DNA from: Ignavibacteriota bacterium
GTDB lineage: Bacteria; Bacteroidota; Ignavibacteria; Kapaibacteriales; UBA2268
Assembly (NCBI GenBank): GCA_019637995.1
Contig: JAHBUQ010000001.1
Coordinates: 1,103,589-1,167,588, forward strand
Length of the DNA: 64,000 nt
Direction: 5' to 3'
Part shown: positions 26,031 through 39,229 of the stretch, piece after piece
Layout: every line of letters starts with the position of its first letter
Numbering within the stretch: the stretch's first letter is position 1
The notes under the pieces: generated by a model
The model's input: the letters and a program-made list of their open reading frames with translations, nothing else
Told to the model about the DNA's origin: nothing
Database searches by the model: none
Position numbers and translations under genes: made by a program

Positions 26031-26120
26031 AAGAATATTCAATTTTTCATTTTAGCAATATTATTTTTTACTCAACTGAAACAAACATTATAAAATTGTG
26101 TCTATGCAATTGAAAAAGAT

Positions 26121-26684
26121 ATGAAAAATTTTAATAAATATAGCGACAACGATTTAATTCAAATAACGGCAAATTCCGGTGAGCCGGAAAAATCTGCGGC
26201 TTTTTCTGAATTGTATAATCGCTATGCAAATAATATTTATCTGTATTGCAGGAAAATTTTCGGTGATGGCACTTTTGCAGAGGATATTTTTCAGGATACT
26301 TTTTTACAACTACTTAAATGTATTGAAAATAAAATATATATTGGAAATGTGCAGGGGTATTTACTTAAAACAGCACGCAATTTATCACTGAATTTCAGGC
26401 GTAACCAAAGAGCTGAAATGGTAGAATTTGATGATTTCAGAGCAAATATTGACGATAACAGCTACGAACTTAAAGAACTTTCCGAAATGATTGATTCTGC
26501 TCTGGAGTTACTGCCTGAAGAGCATAAAGAAGCATTTATACTTCAATCTTATCAGGGACTTAGCTATAGTGAAATTGCAACACTAACCGACGTACCGCTT
26601 TCAACTGTCCGCAACAGAATTGTAAGGGCAAAAGCAAAATTAAGAGAAATTCTGGCTCCAATGATTAAGGAGGAAAAATTATGA
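26121..26684 (+). CDS. ECF-type (sigma-70 family, group 4) RNA polymerase sigma factor, 187 aa. Module 1.
   Basis: Region 2-like FSELYNRYANNIYLYCRKIFGD..AEDIFQDTFLQLL and region 4-like LSYSEIATLTDVPLSTVRNRIVRAKAKLR helix-turn-helix. A candidate TGAAAC-N16-TGTCTA promoter sits at 26077-26104. Confidence 0.85.
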   Translation: MKNFNKYSDNDLIQITANSGEPEKSAAFSELYNRYANNIYLYCRKIFGDGTFAEDIFQDTFLQLLKCIENKIYIGNVQGYLLKTARNLSLNFRRNQRAEMVEFDDFRANIDDNSYELKELSEMIDSALELLPEEHKEAFILQSYQGLSYSEIATLTDVPLSTVRNRIVRAKAKLREILAPMIKEEKL

Positions 26685-27919
26685 AAAATTATGATACATA
26701 CAGCGAGTTGATTTATCTTGTAATTGATGGGGAAGCAAGTGATGCTGAAAGAACTGCTTTCTATTCAGCACTTACCAAAAGCACCGAATTACAAAATGAA
26801 TTTCAAACTGCTATGAAGTTTAACAGAGCGGCTGAGAGTTATCCGAAAAAATCAACTGTTCCGGTGGCAGTTACTGATAAATTATTCAGCAAAGCCGGCT
26901 TGACATATATCCCCAAAGATGCGGCTATAGGTGCTGCAGCCGTTACAAAAGGAGCAATTGTAAAAAGTGGTATCTTTAGTAATGTTATGAGCAACTCAAT
27001 CAGTAAAATTGGCTTTGCTGTTATTGGAATGATCCTTGGTGCCGGAATAATGTATTTACTGAATGATAATTCCGAAATTATCGCTGCCGGAAGTCAGCCC
27101 AATAATATTGACAACAGATTTATCAAATTCGCAGAACCTGAAAAAGCAATTCCAATAATGAGTGCAAATAATGTTGATGAAATTTCATTTACTAAAAGCA
27201 TCAAACGTAACAAAATTGCATCTAATAATTCAGGAAAAATTCTAACAGAGGATGTTGGAATGGAAGATGAAAAATTTGAGAATATTCCTCATCTTAAAGA
27301 TATATCAGAGATATCAAATATTTCAAATAGTAATGAATATTTTCACAATTTGAGTAAATCTAATATTAATTACGAGAGATTTAATAAGATGATTTATGAA
27401 AATAACATCCTGAATAAAAACAACATATTTACATTCTTTGATAATCTGGAAATCTCTTTGGAAAATTCAATTCCGTGGTTTGTTCCTGAAGCATCAGTAT
27501 CACCAAAATCTTATAATAAATTCAACAATTTGGGCTTAAGAGTGTTATTTAAGGCAAATGATTATTTCAGGACCGGAATTTCAATAAATCAGTCCACATT
27601 TTTTGCAGAGTTTATTCAAAGTGAAATGGATGGGAATATTTACAATTATCGAATTCAGCCAAATTTAACAACGGTTTCAAGTGAAATTTTAATTAATTTG
27701 ATAAATTCGGAAGTGTTGGTGCCGTATATTCAGCTTAGTGTGGGAGCTAATCAGGCAGGGATTGTTTTAAGTCCGGCAATGGGTATTGAGTACAATGTTG
27801 TAAATTCTTTATCAATTTATTTCAGTGGTACAATGGATTATTTTAGATTTATACAAAACGACAACTGGTTCGATACTCAAAAATTCAGACTGAATTACGG
27901 TATAAATCTCAAATTTTAA
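26681..27919 (+). CDS. Anti-sigma-like membrane protein, 412 aa. It has a cytoplasmic N-domain, a single TM helix, an N/S/K-rich linker and a C-terminal predicted 8-strand OM beta-barrel-like domain ending in a beta-signal (..YGINLKF). Module 1.
   Basis: The start overlaps the sigma stop (ATGA) and is preceded by AAGGAGGA. The TM segment is IGFAVIGMILGAGIMYLL. The last ~130 aa show 8 alternating-hydrophobic stretches and a terminal Phe with hydrophobics at -2, -4 and -6. Confidence 0.5.
   Translation: MKNYDTYSELIYLVIDGEASDAERTAFYSALTKSTELQNEFQTAMKFNRAAESYPKKSTVPVAVTDKLFSKAGLTYIPKDAAIGAAAVTKGAIVKSGIFSNVMSNSISKIGFAVIGMILGAGIMYLLNDNSEIIAAGSQPNNIDNRFIKFAEPEKAIPIMSANNVDEISFTKSIKRNKIASNNSGKILTEDVGMEDEKFENIPHLKDISEISNISNSNEYFHNLSKSNINYERFNKMIYENNILNKNNIFTFFDNLEISLENSIPWFVPEASVSPKSYNKFNNLGLRVLFKANDYFRTGISINQSTFFAEFIQSEMDGNIYNYRIQPNLTTVSSEILINLINSEVLVPYIQLSVGANQAGIVLSPAMGIEYNVVNSLSIYFSGTMDYFRFIQNDNWFDTQKFRLNYGINLKF
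27138..27265. repeat. 128-bp tract (coding AIPIMSANNVDEISFTKSIKRNKIASNNSGKILTEDVGME) that is ~98% identical at nucleotide level to 31436-31563 in the paralogous anti-sigma gene
   Basis: Side-by-side reading shows three mismatches in 128 nt. The flanking sequence of the two genes is only 20-50% identical at protein level. Confidence 0.7.
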
Positions 27920-28416: not shown

Positions 28417-30111
28417 ATGAAAAAGTTCACATTGTATTTAGTTGCTTTCTTTGCGATTTCCTCACCGCTTTTAGCGCAAAAGTTTAATCATCCCGAACTA
28501 CAGTCGGATACATTAAGAACATTTGAAAGTAAAAAGAATACTGTCAGCAATATTCAATTCGGTGCAACAAATTATGGGATAAGTAATTGTTATTTCAATT
28601 TCCCTGAATTACGGGGTGTAATTTGGCCCAGAAATAGTGATATTACTTATTCTTTTGGAAGCGGGTTGTGGATTGGCGCTAGTAAATATCATCCTGATTC
28701 AAATAAAACAAGAAACATGGTTCTAATAACATATAACCCGAACTCAGGGAAAAGTTGGGCTGTGCCAGGGAGAATAGAAGACGGAAATGAAGTCAAATAT
28801 GATTTGAAGAAGAAATACAGGACATTTTTAAGTACAGAATACAACACATACACAGGCGAGCCTTTTGATAGTGATTACGAATATAATTGGTCTCACTGGA
28901 TTTCAAACGGAGAGAAAAAGTACAGTCATGGAGTATTTTTAAATGAATACGAACACGAAAATTCAAAGCGAAACCGCGATAATTATCTTAATGGTCCTTT
29001 AATTGTATCCGATGAAGATATTGTAACTACCTTCAAGGATACAGACTTAAACTTTTATGAGGGTGGCTCAGCAAACAGACTGGCACAAGGTTATCCCTTG
29101 AGTTTACAAATGGAATCATCCATTTATTCTTGGAGCGATGATTTAATGAAAGATGTGATAATTCAAAGATATGTAATTGAAAATAAGTCCAATGACACAC
29201 TTAAAGACTGTTGGATTGGGAATTATAATGGTGTTGGGATTGGACTTATTTCAAAGTTTGATAACAAAGAATGGGGGACAAAAGATAGATTGATTTACTA
29301 CGAAGAAGATAAAACATTGAATCTTTTTGTTGCTTGGTCAGAAAATTCTGAGGTCATAAATGGTAAAGGATTTGGTTACTTTGGTGTATCCTTGCTTGAA
29401 ACTCCGGCAGTTGATAGCGATGGCTTTTTGAGAAATGACAAGCTAATATATCAAATGGATGAACAGATTGGATTAAAGTCATTGTATAATTGGCACATCA
29501 AGAATGATCCAAGATACGATGAACAAAGATATGACATATTAACATCAAACCAAATTTACAAGTCAGATGATTATCTTGATGGTGGAAGAGTTATGACATC
29601 TACCGGTCCATTTCACTTTCGTCCGGGAGAAAAGGCATACTTTACTGTATTGATAGCATTTGCACTTCCTGCTAAAGGAGGCGAAGCTGACGGTACAAAA
29701 GAAGATATTGCAGGTATCGGCGGCAAAATCAACAAGGGCGATAATCCAATTAAACAAAGCAACGAATTATCACTTATTGATAAAATCAAATTTGCAAGAG
29801 ATAAATATTATAATGGCTTAGTTACAAAAATATTGGAATCTGAAGTTCGCAGAAATTCAGAATTGAGTGTCTATCCCAACCCCGCTACAGATTTCATTAC
29901 AATTCAATTAAGCAAAAAAGGGCTTCAGCCCTTTGCAGCGACTGGTAAAGTGCAAATATTTGATGCGTTGGGTTTGGAAGTCATATCCACCCCGTCAGCT
30001 GCGCTGACACCCACGGGTGAGGGGAATTTAAGAATTGATGTTTCGCATTTACCAGCAGGAGTTTATTTCATACGTGTTGGTAATAAGGTAGGCAAATTTG
30101 TGAAGAAGTAA
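28417..30111 (+). CDS. Secreted protein of unknown function, 564 aa, with a T9SS C-terminal sorting domain. Module 1 cargo.
   Basis: Signal peptide MKKFTLYLVAFFAISSPLLAQ and AAGGAG upstream. The last ~80 aa, LSVYPNPATDFITIQLS...GVYFIRVGNKVGKFVKK, form a Por secretion tail. Confidence 0.7.
   Translation: MKKFTLYLVAFFAISSPLLAQKFNHPELQSDTLRTFESKKNTVSNIQFGATNYGISNCYFNFPELRGVIWPRNSDITYSFGSGLWIGASKYHPDSNKTRNMVLITYNPNSGKSWAVPGRIEDGNEVKYDLKKKYRTFLSTEYNTYTGEPFDSDYEYNWSHWISNGEKKYSHGVFLNEYEHENSKRNRDNYLNGPLIVSDEDIVTTFKDTDLNFYEGGSANRLAQGYPLSLQMESSIYSWSDDLMKDVIIQRYVIENKSNDTLKDCWIGNYNGVGIGLISKFDNKEWGTKDRLIYYEEDKTLNLFVAWSENSEVINGKGFGYFGVSLLETPAVDSDGFLRNDKLIYQMDEQIGLKSLYNWHIKNDPRYDEQRYDILTSNQIYKSDDYLDGGRVMTSTGPFHFRPGEKAYFTVLIAFALPAKGGEADGTKEDIAGIGGKINKGDNPIKQSNELSLIDKIKFARDKYYNGLVTKILESEVRRNSELSVYPNPATDFITIQLSKKGLQPFAATGKVQIFDALGLEVISTPSAALTPTGEGNLRIDVSHLPAGVYFIRVGNKVGKFVKK
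29872..30111 (+). repeat. T9SS-tail-coding block, ~90% identical at nucleotide level to 35231-35469 at the 3' end of the module-2 cargo gene. It contains an internal perfect hairpin, AAAGGGC-TTCA-GCCCTTT, at 29917-29934.
   Basis: Direct comparison of the two 3' ends. The bodies of the two proteins are unrelated. Confidence 0.7.
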
Positions 30112-30159: not shown

Positions 30160-30190
30160 GCAACAAAGGGCTTCAGCACTTTGCAATAAG
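30160..30190 (+). repeat. Non-coding relic of the T9SS-tail-coding block (GCAACAAAGGGCTTCAGCACTTTGCAATAAG), about 25 of 28 nt matching 35268-35298
   Basis: It lies 50 nt after the stop of the 28417 gene and matches the SNKELQPFAA-coding segment of the 34132 gene. Confidence 0.5.
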
Positions 30191-30206
30191 ATTAAGTAGC
30201 CAAAAC

Positions 30207-30250
30207 AGATGGACTACACCTCGGAGGTGGAGTCCATCTTGCTTTTTATT
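30207..30250 (+). terminator. Long-stem hairpin terminator. A 15-bp stem (AGATGGACTACACCT / AGGTGGAGTCCATCT, one mismatch) is followed by TGCTTTTTATT. The stem is conserved with the hairpin at 34054-34088.
   Basis: Read directly. T-tract follows. Confidence 0.6.
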
Positions 30251-30509
30251 AATCCCAGAAATCCTTTAATCCGAATAATCTCTGATTCAGAAAATGTTGA
30301 AAAACTATAATTTTAAATATTGAAAATAATTTGTGACTTTTTATTCCTAATTTACGTTAATTATTTATGAAAGTTGTACTTTTATAAAAATTATGAATAC
30401 TGAATAACAAAAATATAGCGATAATGATTTAATTAAAATTATCAGAAGTGGTGAAGGTTACTCAGTTGACTATTCCTTCAACACTCTTTATGAAAGGTAT
30501 TCTGCTAAG

Positions 30510-30989
30510 TTGAATTTATTTTGTGTATTCAAATCAAAAAATCCACTTGATGCTGAGGAAATTTTCGAAGATACCTGGCTCAAGTTTCTTGATAGAATCA
30601 GGCAAGGAAAAATACCTGAATCAGTTCTGTCATATTTATTTGCAATTGCAAGAAATCTTGCGATAGACAGGTATCGTGCTGAAATTTCAAAGAAAACAAT
30701 TACAATTGAGTATCGGGATTATTTGAATTTTGAAGACGACTATAGTCAATTATCAACTGAAAATTTGGTTGATGCTGATGAACTTAAGGAGGTTATTATG
30801 GGCGTTCTTTCAAATATGGACGACATTTACAGCGAAGTTTTTATTATGCAGTGGTTTGGCGGGTTAACTCAAAGGGAAATTTCCGAAACACTGAATATTG
30901 GTTTGTCAGCAGTAAAGATGCGAAGTCATCGTGCCATGAAAGAAGTTATTAAATATGTTAAGCCAATTTATAAGAATTATGATGAGTAG
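30510..30989 (+). CDS. ECF sigma factor paralog, module 2. The 5' end is disrupted by an in-frame TAA at 30405-30407, downstream of an ATG at 30393. The longest intact ORF starts at TTG 30510 and would lack part of region 2.1. Possible pseudogene.
   Basis: The frame 30393-30989 reads MNTE*QKYSDNDLIKIIRSGEGYSVDYSFNTLYERYSAKL-MNLFCVF.... This aligns with the module-1 sigma MKNFNKYSDNDLIQI...FSELYNRYANNIYLY. Region 4 (LTQREISETLNIGLSAVKMRSHRAMKEV) is intact. Confidence 0.6.
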   Translation: MNLFCVFKSKNPLDAEEIFEDTWLKFLDRIRQGKIPESVLSYLFAIARNLAIDRYRAEISKKTITIEYRDYLNFEDDYSQLSTENLVDADELKEVIMGVLSNMDDIYSEVFIMQWFGGLTQREISETLNIGLSAVKMRSHRAMKEVIKYVKPIYKNYDE

Positions 30990-31005: not shown

Positions 31006-32196
31006 ATGGAAAATATTGATAGATTTACCAAATATTATTCCGGGGAAATGAATCAAATTGAAGAGGAATTATTTTTTTCTGAATTAGCTTTAGATAATTC
31101 AGTCAGAGATGAATTTAAAACTTTTTATATGATAAATAGTTCCTTATCATCAATTGTCAGTTCCTATAAACCAAGTGAAGAAAGTAAAGCCAAGCTTTTC
31201 AGCAAAGCCGGATTGGTTTATTCACCGGCTGCCATAACGGTAGCGGCTCTGACTGCAACAAAAGGCACAATAATCAGTCAGATTGCGACTTATACAATGG
31301 GCAAACTCGGTTTAATTTTGTTTGGTTTAATTATCGGCGCCGGACTGATGTATCTGCTAAATTCTCAACCTGAAAATATTGCTTTAAATAATCAACCGGC
31401 TAATAATGAGGAAAGAATCATTCAAATCTTAGATTCTGAAAAAGCAATTCCAATAATGAGTGCAAATAATGTTGATGAAATTTCATTTACTAAAAGTATC
31501 AAACGTAACAAAATTGCATCTAATAATTCAGGAAAAATTCTAACTGAGGATGTTGGAATGGAGGAGAAAGAAGAACTTCACACCCATAATATACAAATTA
31601 AAAAGTGTCAAATACCTGATGTTCATAATTTTGAAGGAAATATAATTCCAGAATATAAATTAAATTCTGAAATTAAAAATACAGAGTATTATCAAAAAAT
31701 TTCAACAGATTTTAAAGAATTAGGTTTATCAGTTGAAACAAGATACTCTACATACTGGAATATGGTAAATGAAAATGTTCAGCCAAGTGAATTTTCGATT
31801 TTTAATAATATTGATATATTTGTTTATAAAGAAGTCTTGCAAAATTTGCTTCTGGGTGCAGGTGTGCGTCAGGAAACGTTTTATGCTAAATATAACTCTT
31901 TCGAGAATGGACGGGATTTTATATATGAGCAACAACCAAATCTTACAAATTTTGAGTTAGCAATTCGGTATTTCCCATATAATATTGAATTTTTCAAACC
32001 GCTTATTCAACTGAACTTAGGCGGTGGTAACTATGGATTCACATATCGTGGAGCAATTGGAAGTGAAATTAATCTGATAGACAAATTTTCAATATTATTA
32101 ACTATTGATTATGCCACATTCAATTTTTTTCATAAAGACATAAAGAACAATTCGGGTAAAGTTGGAATTAATTACGGAATAAATTATAAATTTTAA
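31006..32196 (+). CDS. Anti-sigma-like membrane protein paralog, module 2. Same architecture as module 1: N-domain, TM helix LGLILFGLIIGAGLMYLL, linker, and an 8-strand beta-barrel-like C-terminus ending ..NYGINYKF.
   Basis: I place the start at ATG 31006, giving MENIDRF.... This is 7 nt after GGAGGA and matches the module-1 MKNYDTY start. The ORF track begins at 30955, inside the sigma gene. Confidence 0.5.
   Translation: MENIDRFTKYYSGEMNQIEEELFFSELALDNSVRDEFKTFYMINSSLSSIVSSYKPSEESKAKLFSKAGLVYSPAAITVAALTATKGTIISQIATYTMGKLGLILFGLIIGAGLMYLLNSQPENIALNNQPANNEERIIQILDSEKAIPIMSANNVDEISFTKSIKRNKIASNNSGKILTEDVGMEEKEELHTHNIQIKKCQIPDVHNFEGNIIPEYKLNSEIKNTEYYQKISTDFKELGLSVETRYSTYWNMVNENVQPSEFSIFNNIDIFVYKEVLQNLLLGAGVRQETFYAKYNSFENGRDFIYEQQPNLTNFELAIRYFPYNIEFFKPLIQLNLGGGNYGFTYRGAIGSEINLIDKFSILLTIDYATFNFFHKDIKNNSGKVGINYGINYKF
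31436..31563. repeat. Partner copy of the 128-bp near-identical tract (see 27138-27265)
   Basis: Same basis as 27138-27265. Confidence 0.7.
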
Positions 32197-32202
32197 ATAA
32201 AT

Positions 32203-32946
32203 TTGGAGAGAACAATGAATACTAAAATCATTTTATCATTAGCATTGCTTTTGCTATTTTTGACATCCTGTGAAGACATTGTCAATTCAGAAAAGAACAT
32301 TAAGAAAACTGGATACTTGTATAATAAGGTTCTTAATAATCAGGAAAAAAACGTATTAATGCCATTGAAAGTTGGTAATATGTGGCTATATGAAGTCAAA
32401 CAATTTGACTCATCCGGTACAATGATTAACGAATATATTGACTCAATCGAAGTCTTAGAGAAAATCAACTTCAGAGGCGAAACATGGTTTAGAGTCAGAA
32501 TGATAGATATGGGTTCTACTTGGAATTCAATTCTGACTAATACAGATAAGGGGCTATATCGTGCAGACGAGAACACCACACTTGATTGTAGATTTATAGT
32601 AGCTCAATATCCTGAGAATCGAAGTCAAATTATTGCCCTTCATGAAGAAAATGTGATGATTATGTATTTTGACGGTCAGAAAGATGTTATTGATACAGTT
32701 ACAACTCAATATTTAATTGAATTAAATGCAAATTATACTGCTTCTTTTAAATCTGCAAATTATCCTGCACGGGAGTATTCTACTTACTGGAGGGCATTAG
32801 AGTTGGTTGATAGTAAAACTTTGCATAAAGTTGATGTTTTTGTTCCAAACATAGGTCTTTTTGAGCATAAACGCTACCGCTTTGCCGGAGGCAGAAGGTA
32901 TGTTGAAACCCACTATAAATTAGTAGCAACTAATTTAATAAAATAA
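32203..32946 (+). CDS. Lipoprotein, 247 aa, paralog of the N-terminal domain of the next gene. Module 2.
   Basis: Lipobox FLTSCED. The leader TAAATAAATTTGGAGA is identical to that of the next gene. Shared blocks include CEDIVNSEKNIKKT/CDDIVNSDSNIKKT and MPLKVGNMWLYEV/MPLKVGYKWLYSV. Confidence 0.6.
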   Translation: MERTMNTKIILSLALLLLFLTSCEDIVNSEKNIKKTGYLYNKVLNNQEKNVLMPLKVGNMWLYEVKQFDSSGTMINEYIDSIEVLEKINFRGETWFRVRMIDMGSTWNSILTNTDKGLYRADENTTLDCRFIVAQYPENRSQIIALHEENVMIMYFDGQKDVIDTVTTQYLIELNANYTASFKSANYPAREYSTYWRALELVDSKTLHKVDVFVPNIGLFEHKRYRFAGGRRYVETHYKLVATNLIK

Positions 32947-32965: not shown

Positions 32966-34015
32966 ATGAAATCGAAAGTTATATTAATGCTAATCACAGT
33001 GCTTGTTATTATAACAGCTTGCGATGATATTGTCAATTCCGACAGTAACATCAAGAAAACGTCGCTTGATTATAGTAAGGTACTTGATAATCAGGAAACA
33101 GGTGTCATAATGCCACTGAAGGTGGGTTATAAGTGGCTGTATTCAGTTGATAAAGTAAATGAAGAAAATGTCGCAATTAGTAATCGTATTGATTCTATTG
33201 TCGTTCTGCGTGAAGTAATGTTGGAAAATGAAAAATGGTTTGAAGTATATTTCCCAATGTTTTCAAGAGATTACAATGTCCTGATGACCAATACCGAAAA
33301 AGGTTTGATGATTCATTGCGAGCAATGCTTGGAAAAGAAATTTCTTTGGGCAGAATATCCACAAAATGGCAGTCTTTTCTATAGCGGAAGGAAATTAATT
33401 CAGTTGAAAGATTCCCAAGGAAATGTAATTGGTCAAGATTATGTACCATTAGGCAAAGAGTCGCAGAGTTCCGGTGTTAGTTTACAAAATGGAAAAAGCT
33501 TTTCAACGGTAAATTATGTCTGTTATGCAATCAATCAAAACAAAATGCAAAAAGAAGTTTTCCTTGGAGATGAGCATTTCTCTCCGGATTTTGGTTTAGT
33601 TGCCGGATTTACTAAAGCGTTAGATGGAATGCTTGGAGAGCAGTATGAGTATTTAGAGTTTTCTAATATTAGCGAAGTAAATCAATGTATTTATGAAGAA
33701 ACCATCAACCTTGGCGACATACAAATTGGAAAGGTTCATTCATTCACAAAAGAAATAACAAATACCACTGACAAAACTTATAGTTTGAAAGGAATAGCAA
33801 TAATACCGGCTACTGAAATTATCAGCTTCGGAAAAATTACACCTACAATGCACGACTGGCTTAACTTCCCAATCAGACAAAATCAAAAGCTTTCTATTGA
33901 AATTAAAGTTACACCAGACAAATTAGGAGATTTCTCTACATCAGTAATGATATTTCATTCAGAAATGCATAATTGTTTTTATAGAATTTATATTAACGGT
34001 ACTTGTGTAGAGTAG
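32966..34015 (+). CDS. Lipoprotein, 349 aa: N-domain paralogous to the 32203 gene plus a C-terminal Ig-like domain related to the 27935 lipoprotein. Module 2.
   Basis: Lipobox IITACDD. The C-terminal INLGDIQIGKVHSFTKEITNTTD... is DUF1573-like. Confidence 0.6.
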   Translation: MKSKVILMLITVLVIITACDDIVNSDSNIKKTSLDYSKVLDNQETGVIMPLKVGYKWLYSVDKVNEENVAISNRIDSIVVLREVMLENEKWFEVYFPMFSRDYNVLMTNTEKGLMIHCEQCLEKKFLWAEYPQNGSLFYSGRKLIQLKDSQGNVIGQDYVPLGKESQSSGVSLQNGKSFSTVNYVCYAINQNKMQKEVFLGDEHFSPDFGLVAGFTKALDGMLGEQYEYLEFSNISEVNQCIYEETINLGDIQIGKVHSFTKEITNTTDKTYSLKGIAIIPATEIISFGKITPTMHDWLNFPIRQNQKLSIEIKVTPDKLGDFSTSVMIFHSEMHNCFYRIYINGTCVE

Positions 34016-34053
34016 GAAATTAGATATAATCTGTATCGCAGATTTAGTCAAGC

Positions 34054-34088
34054 CAGATGGACTCCACTTACAAAGTGGAGTCCATCTG
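34054..34088. repeat. Perfect 15-bp-stem hairpin (CAGATGGACTCCACT-TACAA-AGTGGAGTCCATCTG). The stem sequence is shared with 30207-30239. No clear T-tract follows, so this may be a REP-like element or a terminator.
   Basis: Read directly. It lies between the second lipoprotein gene and the cargo gene of module 2. Confidence 0.45.
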
Positions 34089-34131: not shown

Positions 34132-35469
34132 ATGAAAACCAAAATTTTATTGCTTTGTTTATTTGTTATGATTTATAGCGAAAGTTCTTCCCAGCTTATA
34201 AAATGGGATACGTTAACAACCGACTTTGATTATTTCAACAGACAACATTTCCATACTATAAATGAAACAAGAGAATACATATATTCTTTCAATTTAGGTT
34301 CCATCGTTAATAATCTATTAGTTATTTCAGAGTATGATATTTACAAAAAAGATTTCTCAGAACAAATCTCATTCAAATTAGATCAGATGTATAATCCAAA
34401 TGAATACCGTCCTAATGATTGCATTATGACTGAAAACAACATTATTTATGTAGTTGCTGATTCAGGATATATTTTTCAAAAAAATATTTTTAACAAAGAA
34501 TGGACTTCAAGAAAAATTATTGAAGAAAGTGCTTTGATTTACAATATTGCTTTCAAGGATTCTTTATTTGGTATTATTTCAAATTATCCGGATTATGAAA
34601 ACCTGATACCTGAGCTGCATTATACTGAAGATGGAGGAAATAATTGGTCAAAATTTGAAAATCAAATTGAGAACGAAAAGCCATTTTTAATTACAAGTTT
34701 TAGATTTTTTCAGGATACAATGATTGTAATTACTTATGAACCGGAAACAAAAAATCGAAAGATATATTTCAGTTTTAACTCGGGATATAATTGGGATTAT
34801 ATCAATGAATTCCCAAAATTTAGTTCATTAGAAAGACATAATAGTATTTATTTCAAAAATGGAAAGTTATGGGTTGCTTCGATAAGGTCAGAGGAATTTG
34901 TTTTTTCTGATAATTTTGGTCTAACATGGACGAAAGTAAATGAAGTTAATTCTAATGAAGGGATTCGGGGTATCAGGAATATAACTTTTAAAGATAATTT
35001 AAATGAAGGTTTTGCACTAAATCCATACGGTGTTTATTATACTACAGATGGTTTAAACTGGGAATTTGACAGAAATCATGAAGATAAGCAACTAGAAAAA
35101 TTGAACTTAACGCAATTCAATTACAAAGATGAAATTTATCTTATACAAGATAGCGCTGCATTAAAATATGATGGTCTGATTACTTCAATTAAACAAAATG
35201 ATGTTTCAAAAATTGGAGGCATGAGCGTTCATCCCAACCCCGCTACAGATTTCATCACAATTCAATTAAGCAACAAAGAGCTTCAGCCCTTTGCAGCAGA
35301 AGAAAAAGTGCAGATATTTGATGCGTTGGGTTTGGAAGTCATATCCACCCCGTCAGCTGCGCTGACACCCACGGGTGAGGGGAATTTAAGAATTGATGTT
35401 TCGCATTTACCAGCAGGAGTGTATTTCATTCGCATTGGTGAGCAAGTGAGTATGTTTGTAAAGCACTAG
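34132..35469 (+). CDS. Secreted BNR/beta-propeller-like protein, 445 aa, with a T9SS C-terminal sorting domain. Module 2 cargo.
   Basis: Signal peptide MKTKILLLCLFVMIYSESSSQ. BNR-like motifs YTEDGGNNWS, SDNFGLTWTK and YTTDGLNWE. The tail MSVHPNPATDFITIQLS...GVYFIRIGEQVSMFVKH is ~90% identical to that of the 28417 gene. Confidence 0.7.
   Translation: MKTKILLLCLFVMIYSESSSQLIKWDTLTTDFDYFNRQHFHTINETREYIYSFNLGSIVNNLLVISEYDIYKKDFSEQISFKLDQMYNPNEYRPNDCIMTENNIIYVVADSGYIFQKNIFNKEWTSRKIIEESALIYNIAFKDSLFGIISNYPDYENLIPELHYTEDGGNNWSKFENQIENEKPFLITSFRFFQDTMIVITYEPETKNRKIYFSFNSGYNWDYINEFPKFSSLERHNSIYFKNGKLWVASIRSEEFVFSDNFGLTWTKVNEVNSNEGIRGIRNITFKDNLNEGFALNPYGVYYTTDGLNWEFDRNHEDKQLEKLNLTQFNYKDEIYLIQDSAALKYDGLITSIKQNDVSKIGGMSVHPNPATDFITIQLSNKELQPFAAEEKVQIFDALGLEVISTPSAALTPTGEGNLRIDVSHLPAGVYFIRIGEQVSMFVKH
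35231..35469 (+). repeat. Partner copy of the T9SS-tail-coding block (see 29872-30111)
   Basis: Same basis as 29872-30111. Confidence 0.7.
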
Positions 35470-37755: not shown

Positions 37756-38658
37756 TCACTTCTTTTTTATCTTAATATTAGATAATGCCCCATCAATTTG
37801 AAAATCAATCTTATTAACATTATCATAATAATTTTTAGTAACAAAAATACCGGAACTGTTTTTTGTAAAATTCTCAAATGAAGTCTTGCTTAATGCAAAA
37901 TCCCCTTGAACTGAACAGCCTGCATCTTCTGGTACAGTAATGTCAAGAGTAGCAGCACCACAATTTATATTTACTTTAGTCATCGGCAGATGAGCTCCAA
38001 GCTTTAATCCGGCATTAGTGGCACCTGCGTCAATATTCAGATTTGGGACTTTCAACTCTTCCAAATCCAGTTTAATTTTTGATGCTCCGGCACTGATATC
38101 AATATCCCATTCCAAATCTTCTAAAATCTCAATTTTAGTATATCTTGACTGGTTATTAGTACCCTCACTACCTGCAAGACTGTAATTTAATACAACAAGT
38201 GAATCATTAGGGCGGTCAATTGTAACATCACAAAATACAGATGAAGAATTCACTTCGTATAAATAATCCATAGTATTTGAAATGACAAAACTACCAGCTC
38301 CACCAGAAAAATTGAGTACACCCTTCGTTACTTTTTCATCAAGTATCTCATGATTGCTGTTGCAATCACTCTTTGCAGAATTGATATCAATATTATTTCC
38401 AAGCTCACTCAAATAACTAAAACCGCTTGTAAACATTGCTACTATAAGCAATGAAAGTAAAAGACCCGACAGTGAAAGAATTATATTTTTTACAATGAGT
38501 GGAATTTTTAGAAGTGATAAGCCCCATATTATCAAAAGAAGTGGCCACCAGTCAATTACTTCGCTGAAACTAACGCGAAATGCACCGAAATTATTTGATA
38601 AGATAAAAATTCCAAGAAAAATTAGAAATGAGCCCCAGAAAAAAAGACTGCTTTTCAT
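37756..38658 (-). CDS. LiaF-like / DUF4097 (head GIN-type beta-helix) membrane protein, 300 aa
   Basis: Three N-terminal TM helices, then a repetitive beta-helix-like C-domain (IDISAGASKIKLDL..NIDAGATNAGLKLG..NINCGAATLDITV). The start overlaps the pspC stop by 4 nt. Confidence 0.6.
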   Translation of the reverse strand: MKSSLFFWGSFLIFLGIFILSNNFGAFRVSFSEVIDWWPLLLIIWGLSLLKIPLIVKNIILSLSGLLLSLLIVAMFTSGFSYLSELGNNIDINSAKSDCNSNHEILDEKVTKGVLNFSGGAGSFVISNTMDYLYEVNSSSVFCDVTIDRPNDSLVVLNYSLAGSEGTNNQSRYTKIEILEDLEWDIDISAGASKIKLDLEELKVPNLNIDAGATNAGLKLGAHLPMTKVNINCGAATLDITVPEDAGCSVQGDFALSKTSFENFTKNSSGIFVTKNYYDNVNKIDFQIDGALSNIKIKKK

Positions 38659-39089
38659 AATACACCTCCATTTTTCTTGCTTGCTTTGTAGATAATGTAA
38701 GCTCCAAATCCTACAAGTATGAGGGGCCAGATGTAGCTTAAATCAATTTGAGGTATAAATCTTTTTAATAAAAACAACATTCCGAATGCTATTAATATGG
38801 AGCCGCCAATTATCCTTCTTTGATTTTGCCTCGCTTCGTATATGATTTTCTCAACTTCCGGTACTTCAGCTTTAACATCTTCAGAGAACTCAACACCTTC
38901 GATATCATCACTAAGAGGAACAAAAATCCATAATGCAATATAAACAATAAGGCTAAGCCCCCAAGCAAATAACGATACAATAAATATAACCCTTATAATT
39001 ACAGGGTCAACATCAAAATACTCTCCTAATCCACCGGCTACACCACCTATGAATTTATTCCTGCCGGACCTGTATAATTGCTTTGTCAT
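38655..39089 (-). CDS. pspC: PspC-domain protein (phage-shock/envelope-stress family), about 144 aa
   Basis: Canonical PspC domain MTKQLYRSGRNKFIGGVAGGLGEYFDVDPVIIRVIFIV. I place the start at the internal ATG (39089), preceded by AAAGGTG. The ORF track starts at 39158. Confidence 0.75.
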   Translation of the reverse strand: MTKQLYRSGRNKFIGGVAGGLGEYFDVDPVIIRVIFIVSLFAWGLSLIVYIALWIFVPLSDDIEGVEFSEDVKAEVPEVEKIIYEARQNQRRIIGGSILIAFGMLFLLKRFIPQIDLSYIWPLILVGFGAYIIYKASKKNGGVL

Positions 39090-39229
39090 TTCAGCACCTT
39101 TTAATTTAATTGTATTTGTTTTATTTAATATTACGCTGTGGTTATTTACAAGTTTCAAAGATAATATTTTTTTTCTTTTTTTATAGAAAATTATTTACAT
39201 GTTTACCGTCTTTATTTATTTTAATCAAA

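Follow-up and report, generated by a model that had tools for sequence, protein, structure and literature searches.

Two genes of a Candidatus Kapabacteria MAG probably code for dual membrane-spanning (Dma-type) anti-sigma factors that work by the mechanism proposed below, in which one polypeptide would link a cytoplasmic ECF sigma factor to a β-barrel in the outer membrane. Computation showed how the domains are arranged and folded, that the genes are coupled, and that promoter, β-signal and synteny are conserved. In the NCBI taxonomy the host group, Kapaibacteriia, is equivalent to Eximiradiia, a class of Bacteroidota.

Two sigma/anti-sigma cassettes

The window (the whole stretch of DNA analysed, 64 kb) contains two anti-sigma ORFs, at 26681–27919 (412 aa) and 31006–32196 (396 aa). 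For the latter we used the start at ATG 31006, as in NCBI, where the protein is identical to KIT33_01755; the ORF list begins the same frame at 30955. The proteins share 38% identity (E 5e-70) and are thus paralogs, and family HMMs run over the window revealed no paralogs besides these two. Immediately 5′ of each lies an ECF sigma gene with Sigma70_r2 and Sigma70_r4 domains, and in every homolog locus examined an ECF sigma gene was found directly upstream. A preliminary description, made from the letters of the DNA and its ORFs, had already pointed to the two ORFs, their paralogy, their common layout and their direct coupling to an ECF sigma gene, each of which was borne out. The genes and sites of the two cassettes are as follows.

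26078–26103, forward strand: promoter of the ECF type for cassette 1, GAAACAAAC-N11-GTGTCT, located 43 nt before the ATG of sigma 1
26121–26684, forward strand: ECF sigma factor 1, 187 aa (Pfam Sigma70_r2 2e-11, Sigma70_r4_2 4e-16)
26681–27919, forward strand: anti-sigma 1, 412 aa
27935–28396, forward strand: putative small lipoprotein of 153 aa with lipobox FSSC, starting 15 nt beyond anti-sigma 1
28417–30111, forward strand: protein secreted by the type IX secretion system (T9SS), 564 aa, end of cassette 1 (Por_Secre_tail 3.6e-13)
30394–30989, forward strand: ECF sigma factor 2, intact ORF only from TTG 30510 (159 aa)
31006–32196, forward strand: anti-sigma 2, 396 aa, same layout as anti-sigma 1, C-terminus NYGINYKF
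32203–32946, forward strand: lipoprotein downstream of anti-sigma 2, predicted from sequence, lipobox LTSC
32966–34015, forward strand: predicted lipoprotein, 349 aa, lipobox ITAC, weak Ig-like (DUF1573/HYDIN-type) C-domain
34132–35469, forward strand: T9SS-secreted protein, 445 aa, end of cassette 2 (Por_Secre_tail 8.7e-12)

The promoter sequence of cassette 1 occurs a single time in the window (0.00 matches expected by chance), and a search of the window for further ECF promoter sites that might belong to a regulon returned the autoregulatory site only. Nine of 10 fetched loci (5 independent loci) carry the promoter motif once, just 5′ of their sigma gene. In NCBIfam, sigma 1 scored 94 bits against TIGR02937, over the cut-off of that model, and its best match was the Bacteroides-type TIGR02985 (110 bits, under the cut-off of 126). 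The sigma-1 stop and the anti-sigma 1 start overlap by 4 nt (ATGA), and the short intergenic gaps suggest that the 153-aa lipoprotein gene, whose product gave no match in a Pfam search, is co-transcribed with the genes upstream. An ortholog of the 564-aa T9SS protein, 49% identical, occupies the equivalent place after the P0010 pair.

In cassette 2, an in-frame TAA (30406–30408) stands as codon 5 behind the ancestral start of sigma 2 (ATG 30394), and an identical copy of the sequence with this stop is found in a second assembly (GCA_026129425.1). A motif search upstream of the gene revealed no GAAAC...GTGTCT promoter. Because of the codon-5 stop and the missing promoter motif, the second sigma/anti-sigma pair may be non-functional. 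Further downstream, the lipoprotein with the LTSC lipobox is paralogous in its N-terminal part to the next gene (32966–34015; repeat families D3 and D5), whose 349-aa product has a 55% identical ortholog in the equivalent place after the P0014 pair. The 445-aa T9SS protein also matched Sortilin-Vps10 at 3.8e-6, under the Pfam threshold.

Architecture and extent of the family

To describe the protein layout we rely on an AlphaFold2 model of anti-sigma 1 built with 150 homologs and on alignments of the family. The parts of the two proteins are listed below.

26681–26905, forward strand: anti-sigma 1 predicted cytoplasmic anti-sigma domain, aa 1–75, four helices, no zinc ligands
27002–27070, forward strand: anti-sigma 1 single predicted inner-membrane helix, aa 108–130, signal-anchor, N-terminus inside
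27071–27445, forward strand: anti-sigma 1 disordered tether rich in N/S/K/I, predicted periplasmic, aa 131–255
27446–27916, forward strand: anti-sigma 1 predicted eight-stranded outer-membrane β-barrel, aa 256–412; strands 256–268, 284–291, 296–314, 320–339, 346–356, 360–372, 377–392 and 395–411
27893–27916, forward strand: anti-sigma 1 C-terminal β-signal NYGINLKF (family pattern N-Y-G-[ILV]-[NS]-[YF]-[KN]-[FL])
about the first 70 aa from 31006, forward strand: anti-sigma 2 anti-sigma domain, by alignment with its paralog
31306–31362, forward strand: anti-sigma 2 helix, aa 101–119
31723–32193, forward strand: anti-sigma 2 barrel, aa 240–396

The N-terminal domain was modelled with a pLDDT of ~95 and has the helical fold of an anti-sigma domain of ~70 residues. 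In the family alignment, no His or Cys occupies the positions that would match an H-x3-C-x2-C zinc motif, and the consensus reads LF..L...ELR.EF. A sequence search of the PDB placed RsiW, DdvA and RseA within the top 7 matches (E 0.14–0.6). The zf-HC2 model matched 8 of 38 N-domains at E≤1, none above the gathering score, and gave at best 14.8 bits with the window protein (cut-off 22.2); RseA_N reached a best E of 5.8e-5 in the family, again under its gathering score, and no family member exceeded the gathering score of PF13490 or PF03872. One family member carries the NCBI name 'anti-sigma factor family protein'. The four-helix fold, together with RsiW, DdvA and RseA among the top PDB matches, supports the earlier description of this region as anti-sigma-like.

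The hydrophobic stretches IGFAVIGMILGAGIMYLL and LGLILFGLIIGAGLMYLL begin at about residue 110 in anti-sigma 1 and about residue 101 in anti-sigma 2, respectively. Exactly one hydrophobic 19-mer was found in 148 of 150 homologs, in agreement with the single helix proposed previously. The helix lies ~90–110 residues from the N-terminus, behind the folded four-helix domain, and the net charge flanking it in the homologs is +2.2 before and −0.56 after. A cleaved signal peptide, raised in the preliminary description as an alternative, was rejected, as the hydrophobic segment is internal and shows a positive-inside charge bias; its position and flanking charges therefore indicate a membrane anchor in the N-in orientation. 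Residues 131–246 of the following tether were modelled without secondary structure (pLDDT ~45–55). Linker lengths across the family have a median of 126 aa (range 102–248, interquartile range 121–135); the linker sequence is poorly conserved although the length is tightly constrained. The low-complexity linker described earlier is thus present, at ~125–128 aa rather than ~150.

The C-terminal domain was modelled as a closed, eight-stranded, up-and-down barrel with pLDDT values of 94–99, and all of the top 50 Foldseek matches in the PDB were outer-membrane barrels, natural or designed; the structure check suggested with the original proposal of a barrel has therefore come out in its favour. The number of strands had been given correctly, but the domain measures ~157 aa instead of ~130, strand 1 (256–268) had been missed and the long β3–β4 hairpin had been divided differently than in the model. 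Within the strands, the halves nearer the periplasm have hydrophobic residues in alternation with conserved polar residues, which we read as facing inward, and the predicted extracellular loop 1 and β3–β4 hairpin are strongly conserved in the family. PF13505 (OMP_b-brl) was the sole recurrent Pfam match of the domain, in 16 of 120 members (best E 1.1e-3) and, weakly, in 6 of 25 members of a smaller sample; the two window proteins did not match it, and no member exceeded its gathering score. PF13568 matched none of 25 members at E≤1 and none of 120 at E≤0.1. A profile of the domain retrieved nothing from the PDB sequences even at E 10, so that matches came from fold comparison alone.

Both window proteins end in a β-signal (NYGINLKF and NYGINYKF), as had been recognized before, and the C-terminal pattern polar-x-G-x-x-[aromatic/hydrophobic]-x-[aromatic/hydrophobic] fits 137 of 164 homologs, with Gly at −6 in 160 of the 164. 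Surveyed for a terminal aromatic, a check also named at the outset, 140 of the 164 end in F, Y or W (133, 6 and 1, respectively; 85%), a result in favour of the proposed barrel, and 23 in Leu (14%), a point against it.

Searching with the C-domain profile yielded 1185 cluster representatives at 50% identity, and nearly all of the top 150 share the same layout, a pattern far beyond chance. None of the members reached the Pfam gathering threshold of any OMP or anti-sigma family, NCBIfam contains no model for anti-sigma 1 or anti-sigma 2, and the clusters are annotated 'hypothetical' almost throughout. A homologous-protein search returned 29 proteins with the full-length profile and zero with the C-domain profile, and a contig scan with a narrow peptide pattern returned 4 loci. 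Two family members sit in MAGs labelled Chloroflexota and Hyphomicrobiales; these labels are probably binning errors and not occurrences of the family outside Bacteroidota.

Proposed mechanism and alternative readings

We suggest that the zinc-less four-helix N-domain would keep the ECF sigma factor, encoded on the same transcript, at the inner membrane on its cytoplasmic side, and that the signal-anchor helix, N-terminus inside, would remain in this membrane. The disordered tether of ~125 residues would cross the periplasm, and the C-terminal 157 residues would form an OmpX/NspA/OmpA-like eight-stranded barrel, with the canonical C-terminal β-signal directing its BAM-mediated insertion into the outer membrane. 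A disturbance of the outer membrane or cell surface could then be relayed by proteolysis of the tether and membrane anchor; candidates are a ligand bound at loop 1 and the β3–β4 hairpin, both conserved and extracellular in this reading, damage to the barrel or failure of its assembly. The freed sigma factor would transcribe its own operon, including the downstream lipoprotein and T9SS-cargo genes, from the GAAAC-N-GTGTCT promoter. That the protein binds sigma and resides in both membranes, as well as the proteolytic relay, its trigger and the set of genes controlled, is proposed mainly by analogy with Dma1, for which experiments demonstrated binding to sigma, the presence of the full-length protein in membranes and that of C-terminal fragments in OMVs (PMC10927553).

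The same architecture might instead reflect a precursor that is always cleaved, so that the barrel is freed as an ordinary outer-membrane protein, the N-terminal part acts as a separate short anti-sigma factor and the polypeptide never bridges both membranes, the fusion serving only co-expression or export. The OMV fraction of Dma1 holds C-terminal fragments only, its full-length form is gone in stationary phase, and the low-complexity linker of the window proteins is likely to be protease-sensitive. However, doubly tagged full-length Dma1 was found in total membranes, no signal-peptidase-like site after the helix is conserved in the family alignment, and the linker, never shorter than 102 aa, is constrained in length despite its poor sequence conservation and therefore fits a spanning function; we consider obligatory cleavage quite improbable. 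We also regard as very unlikely a conventional single-pass anti-sigma factor in which the C-terminal barrel is a soluble, periplasmic, eight-stranded ligand-binding domain (avidin-, lipocalin- or YceI-like) that never enters the outer membrane. Finally, the N-domain could have no anti-sigma role, and the protein would then be an envelope tether or structural protein (resembling a TonB or OmpA-type linker) that happens to lie beside a sigma gene. The anti-sigma family matches, all sub-threshold, speak for this view, and the four-helix fold and the identity of the top PDB matches speak for an anti-sigma domain; we consider the structural reading very unlikely.

A further possibility is that the Kapabacteria clade arose as an independent, convergent fusion of a class I anti-sigma domain with an unrelated small barrel, used as a self-reporting assembly sensor. 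Upon BAM or outer-membrane failure, the unassembled C-terminus (Y-K-F, similar to the peptides from OMP C-termini by which DegS is activated) would trigger cleavage of the protein's own tether. Although unlikely in our estimate, such a sensor would unite the role of RseA and the OMP stress signal in one polypeptide, and would switch on lipoprotein and T9SS-cargo cassettes that remodel the surface.

Comparison with known systems

[quoted passage not shown] Dma2 is a characterised protein of the same kind (PMC13088901, 2026), and Reo of B. fragilis and M0N98_03760 of P. vulgatus are earlier cases (PMC9308784, 2022), so that only the remark on novelty in the preliminary description, which knew of no such characterised anti-sigma factor, is wrong. 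Because the design was published in 2022–2024, the envelope-spanning topology is not new and the concept is unchanged. What is new is modest: a large clade without a Pfam match, in conserved cassettes with lipoproteins and T9SS cargo. The design known from gut Bacteroides thus extends to Kapabacteria, an environmental class of Bacteroidota, in a large family (1185 clusters at 50% identity) overlooked by current domain libraries. Tight linker lengths, an almost invariant β-signal, a conserved loop and hairpin, a recognisable cognate promoter and conserved downstream lipoprotein and T9SS-cargo genes make this family useful for studying assembly and sensing.

We set the clade beside Dma1, Dma2 and Dma3 by architecture and published descriptions. 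[quoted passage not shown] Its N-terminal cytoplasmic region binds sigma, a role proposed for the N-domain here. A lipoprotein gene lies beside the pair in both systems, NigD2 for Dma1 and unrelated lipoproteins here. Dma1 is annotated with PF13568 (OMP_b-brl_2), whereas the window clade never matches PF13568 and matches PF13505 weakly; PF13568 is a property of Dma1, and the definition of the Dma family rests on architecture. Dma1 is also larger (~55 kDa, compared with ~46–47 kDa), and its first 40 aa suffice for sigma binding, whereas the window protein has an RsiW-like four-helix domain of ~75 aa and ~105 aa preceding the helix. Dma1 comes from gut Bacteroidales and the window proteins from environmental Kapabacteria, in which the downstream genes, unlike those of Dma1, encode T9SS cargo and non-NigD lipoproteins. 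The cognate sigma factors of Dma proteins (Das1 for Dma1) belong to ECF group 21; in NCBIfam, the best match of sigma 1, TIGR02985, is below its cut-off. Dma3 (BT_2778), too, is a regulator that spans the envelope and has an outer-membrane barrel at its end, but it carries its sigma factor as an N-terminal fusion, whereas sigma and anti-sigma are separate genes here.

In FecA–FecR–FecI, a surface or outer-membrane signal also reaches an ECF sigma factor via a single-pass inner-membrane anti-sigma factor, but the receptor, a 22-stranded TonB-dependent barrel, and the anti-sigma factor are separate proteins; Pfam revealed no FecR, DUF4974 or TonB-dependent receptor domains in the anti-sigma proteins or cassette genes. 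RseA of the RseA/DegS/RseP sigma-E pathway of E. coli is similarly a single-pass inner-membrane protein with a zinc-less class I anti-sigma domain, and exposed C-termini of OMPs (Y-x-F), which resemble the Y-K-F end of the window protein, set the pathway off. RseA differs in lacking a barrel and in having a small, RseB-binding periplasmic domain, and the OMP C-terminal signal is supplied by other proteins. Last, NspA, OmpX/Ail, the N-domains of OmpA and OprF, PagL and OmpW are made with a cleavable signal peptide and are free outer-membrane proteins, whereas the window barrel, with no such peptide, forms the C-terminal part of a regulator anchored in the inner membrane.

Two pairs of sigma and predicted anti-sigma genes and their family

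Each of the two predicted anti-sigma genes in the window is preceded by a gene for an ECF sigma factor carrying Sigma70_r2 and r4 domains, and at the first pair the sigma-1 stop codon overlaps the anti-sigma 1 start codon in the sequence ATGA. The features are as follows.

26078-26103: promoter motif GAAACAAAC-N11-GTGTCT, 43 nt 5′ of the sigma-1 start codon
26681-27919, + strand: anti-sigma 1 ORF, 412 aa, identical to hypothetical protein KIT33_01735 of a Candidatus Kapabacteria MAG
31006-32196, + strand: anti-sigma 2 ORF, 396 aa from NCBI's ATG, identical to hypothetical protein KIT33_01755 of the same MAG

The preliminary description had read a hydrophobic stretch and a C-terminus from each ORF, and in each ORF both are present; the C-termini are NYGINLKF and NYGINYKF. 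The proteins are paralogs (38% identity, E 5e-70), neither of which has an above-threshold match in Pfam or NCBIfam, and a search with family HMMs found no third paralog in the window. Full-length relatives numbered only 25 in a word-indexed search; when the C-terminal 160 aa were used for an exhaustive HMM search, 1185 representatives of 50% identity clusters were found at E<=1e-3, 622 of them reaching E<=1e-10 and 221 reaching E<=1e-30. The best 150 of these 1185 are nearly all 370–430 aa long, with the C-domain at the extreme C-terminus of the protein; a few are shorter, most of them without an initial Met, and these appear to be truncated by contig ends. Two distant members, P0010 and P0164, are encoded on a single 4.49 Mb chromosome (OW818654.1, locus L001), which has at least two members in all. 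It therefore seems common for a genome to have several paralogs, and this may account for the many clusters.

Named members come from Kapabacteria or Kapaibacterium, from 'Bacteroidota bacterium' and from one 'Ignavibacteriae' MAG, and one cluster already bears the NCBI name 'anti-sigma factor family protein'. Kapaibacteriia (class Eximiradiia) sit inside the phylum Bacteroidota in NCBI taxonomy. Contigs from MAGs assigned to Chloroflexota and Hyphomicrobiales (loci L006 and L009) also encode family members, again with the sigma gene upstream, and L009 has the promoter motif as well. Binning errors are the probable explanation for these assignments; should they be correct, the family would reach beyond Bacteroidota.

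All homologous loci examined have an ECF sigma gene immediately upstream of the family gene, in the same orientation. The promoter motif occurs once in the window (chance expectation 0.00) and exactly once, upstream of sigma, in nine of ten fetched loci, which amount to five independent loci. A GAAAC -35 element and such spacing are typical of ECF promoters, and because the motif has both, the sigma-1 operon is probably autoregulated. Upstream of sigma-2 the motif is absent. The ancestral sigma-2 ATG at 30394, which aligns with the sigma-1 N-terminus (…KYSDNDLI…), is followed by an in-frame TAA at codon 5 (30406-30408), and the intact ORF starts only at a TTG at 30510, with the first part of region 2 missing; the start-region sequence is identical in a second assembly. 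Sigma-2 may be a decaying or truncated gene whose partner, anti-sigma 2, is still intact.

Predicted architecture of the anti-sigma proteins

AlphaFold2 already gave a confident, all-beta C-domain with 25 sequences, and the model improved with 150. In the latter, anti-sigma 1 comprises an N-domain at pLDDT ~95 (helices 4-16, 21-33, 35-53 and 62-71), a helix at 108-130, a structureless segment at 131-246 (pLDDT ~45-55) and a C-domain at 256-411 (pLDDT 94-99). A Foldseek search of the PDB with the C-domain returned outer-membrane barrels, natural or designed, in all of the top 50 places.

Foldseek matches of the C-domain (match; Foldseek value; fit)
Legionella porin III; 17.0; -
NspA; 15.7; 2.7 Å, 132 of 155
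OprF N-domain; 15.6; 2.0 Å, 116 of 135
Designed 8-stranded transmembrane barrel; 15.5; 1.8 Å, 112 of 120
PagL, OmpA, OmpW, Thermus thermophilus outer-membrane protein (3dzm), CarO; 13.2-15.5; -

DSSP assigned ten strands, of which 309-314 and 320-325 are polar and prolong strands 3 and 4, and the model is best read as eight membrane strands with a protruding beta3–beta4 hairpin, as in OmpX or NspA. In the periplasm-proximal strand halves of the 150-sequence family alignment, hydrophobic positions alternate with conserved polar or charged ones, a pattern that we read as hydrophobic positions facing outward and polar ones inward. Conservation in the whole protein is highest in loop 1 (W-N-x-P-x-E…S-K-F-N-N) and the hairpin (R-Q-E-T-F…Y-x-Y-E-Q-Q-P-N-L-T), both predicted to lie on the extracellular side in the inferred topology. 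The last eight residues follow the pattern N-Y-G-[ILV]-[NS]-[YF]-[KN]-[FL], with Gly at -6 in 160 and Tyr at -7 in 154 of 164 sequences. The C-terminal consensus polar-x-G-x-x-(aromatic/hydrophobic)-x-(aromatic/hydrophobic), which is the signal that BAM recognises, was matched by 137/164.

Exactly one strongly hydrophobic 19-mer is found in 148 of the 150 full-length members, at about residues 88-114, with a mean net charge of +2.2 over the 15 residues before it and -0.56 over the 15 after. The segment from helix to barrel is rich in N/S/I/K and poorly conserved in sequence (median 126 aa, interquartile range 121-135, minimum 102). The preliminary description had named three alternatives to its envelope-spanning reading: a C-domain forming a soluble beta-sandwich without barrel closure, homologs without a terminal aromatic residue, and a helix that is a cleaved signal peptide. 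On all three, the results favoured the envelope-spanning reading. Of the 164 sequences, 133 end in F, 23 in L, 6 in Y and 1 in W.

For a profile of 38 N-domains, RsiW ranked first in the PDB in a nearly full-length match (E 0.14, below threshold), and the seven best matches also included DdvA and RseA. Likewise below threshold, zf-HC2 was matched by 8 of the 38, and RseA_N gave 5.8e-5 in one member; zinc ligands are absent from the N-domain in the family sequences. These matches are consistent with an anti-sigma N-domain.

Cassette composition and probable local rearrangements

The downstream cassette genes follow at gaps of 15-20 nt, and conservation between genomes extends to them. Comparison with the equivalently placed gene of another genome gives 49% identity for the T9SS-secreted protein of cassette 1 (564 aa), and the cassette 2 lipoprotein of 349 aa shares 55% identity with its counterpart. 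From this gene order and conservation we therefore distinguish two cassette types. In one, sigma and anti-sigma are followed by a small lipoprotein and T9SS cargo; in the other, by one or two further genes, among them one for a conserved lipoprotein of ~350 aa (the window has two lipoprotein genes here), ending in a T9SS-cargo gene in the window and in locus L004.

A 127-nt block (27138-27264 and 31436-31562), encoding EKAIPIMSANNVDEISFTKSIKRNKIASNNSGKILTEDVGME in both linkers, has only 2 differences inside otherwise divergent linker regions, its flanks being ~55-60% identical, and looks like a recent gene conversion. Because P0002, the closest relative of paralog 1, is without the block and P0004, a relative of paralog 2, has a similar one, transfer was probably from paralog 2 to paralog 1. 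The two cargo proteins, otherwise unrelated, have C-terminal T9SS sorting domains (29809-30108 and 35167-35466) with 82% identity over 300 nt, which suggests recent exchange or duplication of these domains. Both of their coding sequences contain the 26-nt palindromic piece GCAACAAAGGGCTTCAGCACTTTGCA (29912-29937 and 35270-35295), and an intergenic copy after cassette 1 (30160-30185) looks like the remnant of a further sorting domain. Two similar stem-loops, GATGGACTNCAC…GTGGAGTCCATC, each ahead of a T-rich stretch, lie after cassette 1 (30197-30239) and between the second lipoprotein and the T9SS-cargo gene of cassette 2 (34045-34087), and may be terminators or attenuators. The tandem lipoprotein genes 32203-32946 and 32966-34015 are a local duplication; they share a similar N-terminal part that takes in the signal/lipobox region and the conserved segment …MPLKVGxxWLY… (repeat families D3 and D5). 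Near both cassettes, two adjoining genes on the - strand (37756-39158) have PspC and LiaF/LiaI-like transmembrane domains and make up a putative second envelope-stress module.

Comparison with Dma proteins

The architecture deduced from raw sequence in the preliminary description is correct; its statement that no such anti-sigma factor had been characterised was out of date, since the Dma family was named by Pardue et al. (PNAS 2024, PMC10927553). This envelope-spanning topology is already described: before Dma was named, P. vulgatus M0N98_03760 (PMC9308784) and Reo of B. fragilis had been proposed to be built alike, and Dma2 was characterised in 2026 (PMC13088901). In Dma1 (BT_4721), the N-terminal region pulled down the ECF21 sigma Das1, and an inner-membrane helix and long disordered region precede an eight-stranded C-terminal barrel annotated OMP_b-brl_2; the full-length protein with both tags was found in total membranes, and outer-membrane vesicles held only C-terminal fragments (PMC10927553). 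Pardue et al. found Dma1-3 only in Bacteroidota, and defined the family by architecture (PMC10927553).

The mechanism of the present clade, localisation and signalling steps included, we infer by analogy. The window proteins agree with Dma in every architectural feature tested, and their host lies within Bacteroidota. Unlike Dma1, the members of the Kapabacteria clade searched had no PF13568 match, and the window proteins have a full RsiW-like N-domain, whereas the first 40 aa suffice for Das1 binding in Dma1. They also differ from Dma in coming from Kapabacteria and in their associated genes, which encode T9SS cargo and lipoproteins not of NigD type. The clade may be a divergent homologous subfamily or an independent fusion, and it is possibly a fourth Dma subfamily.
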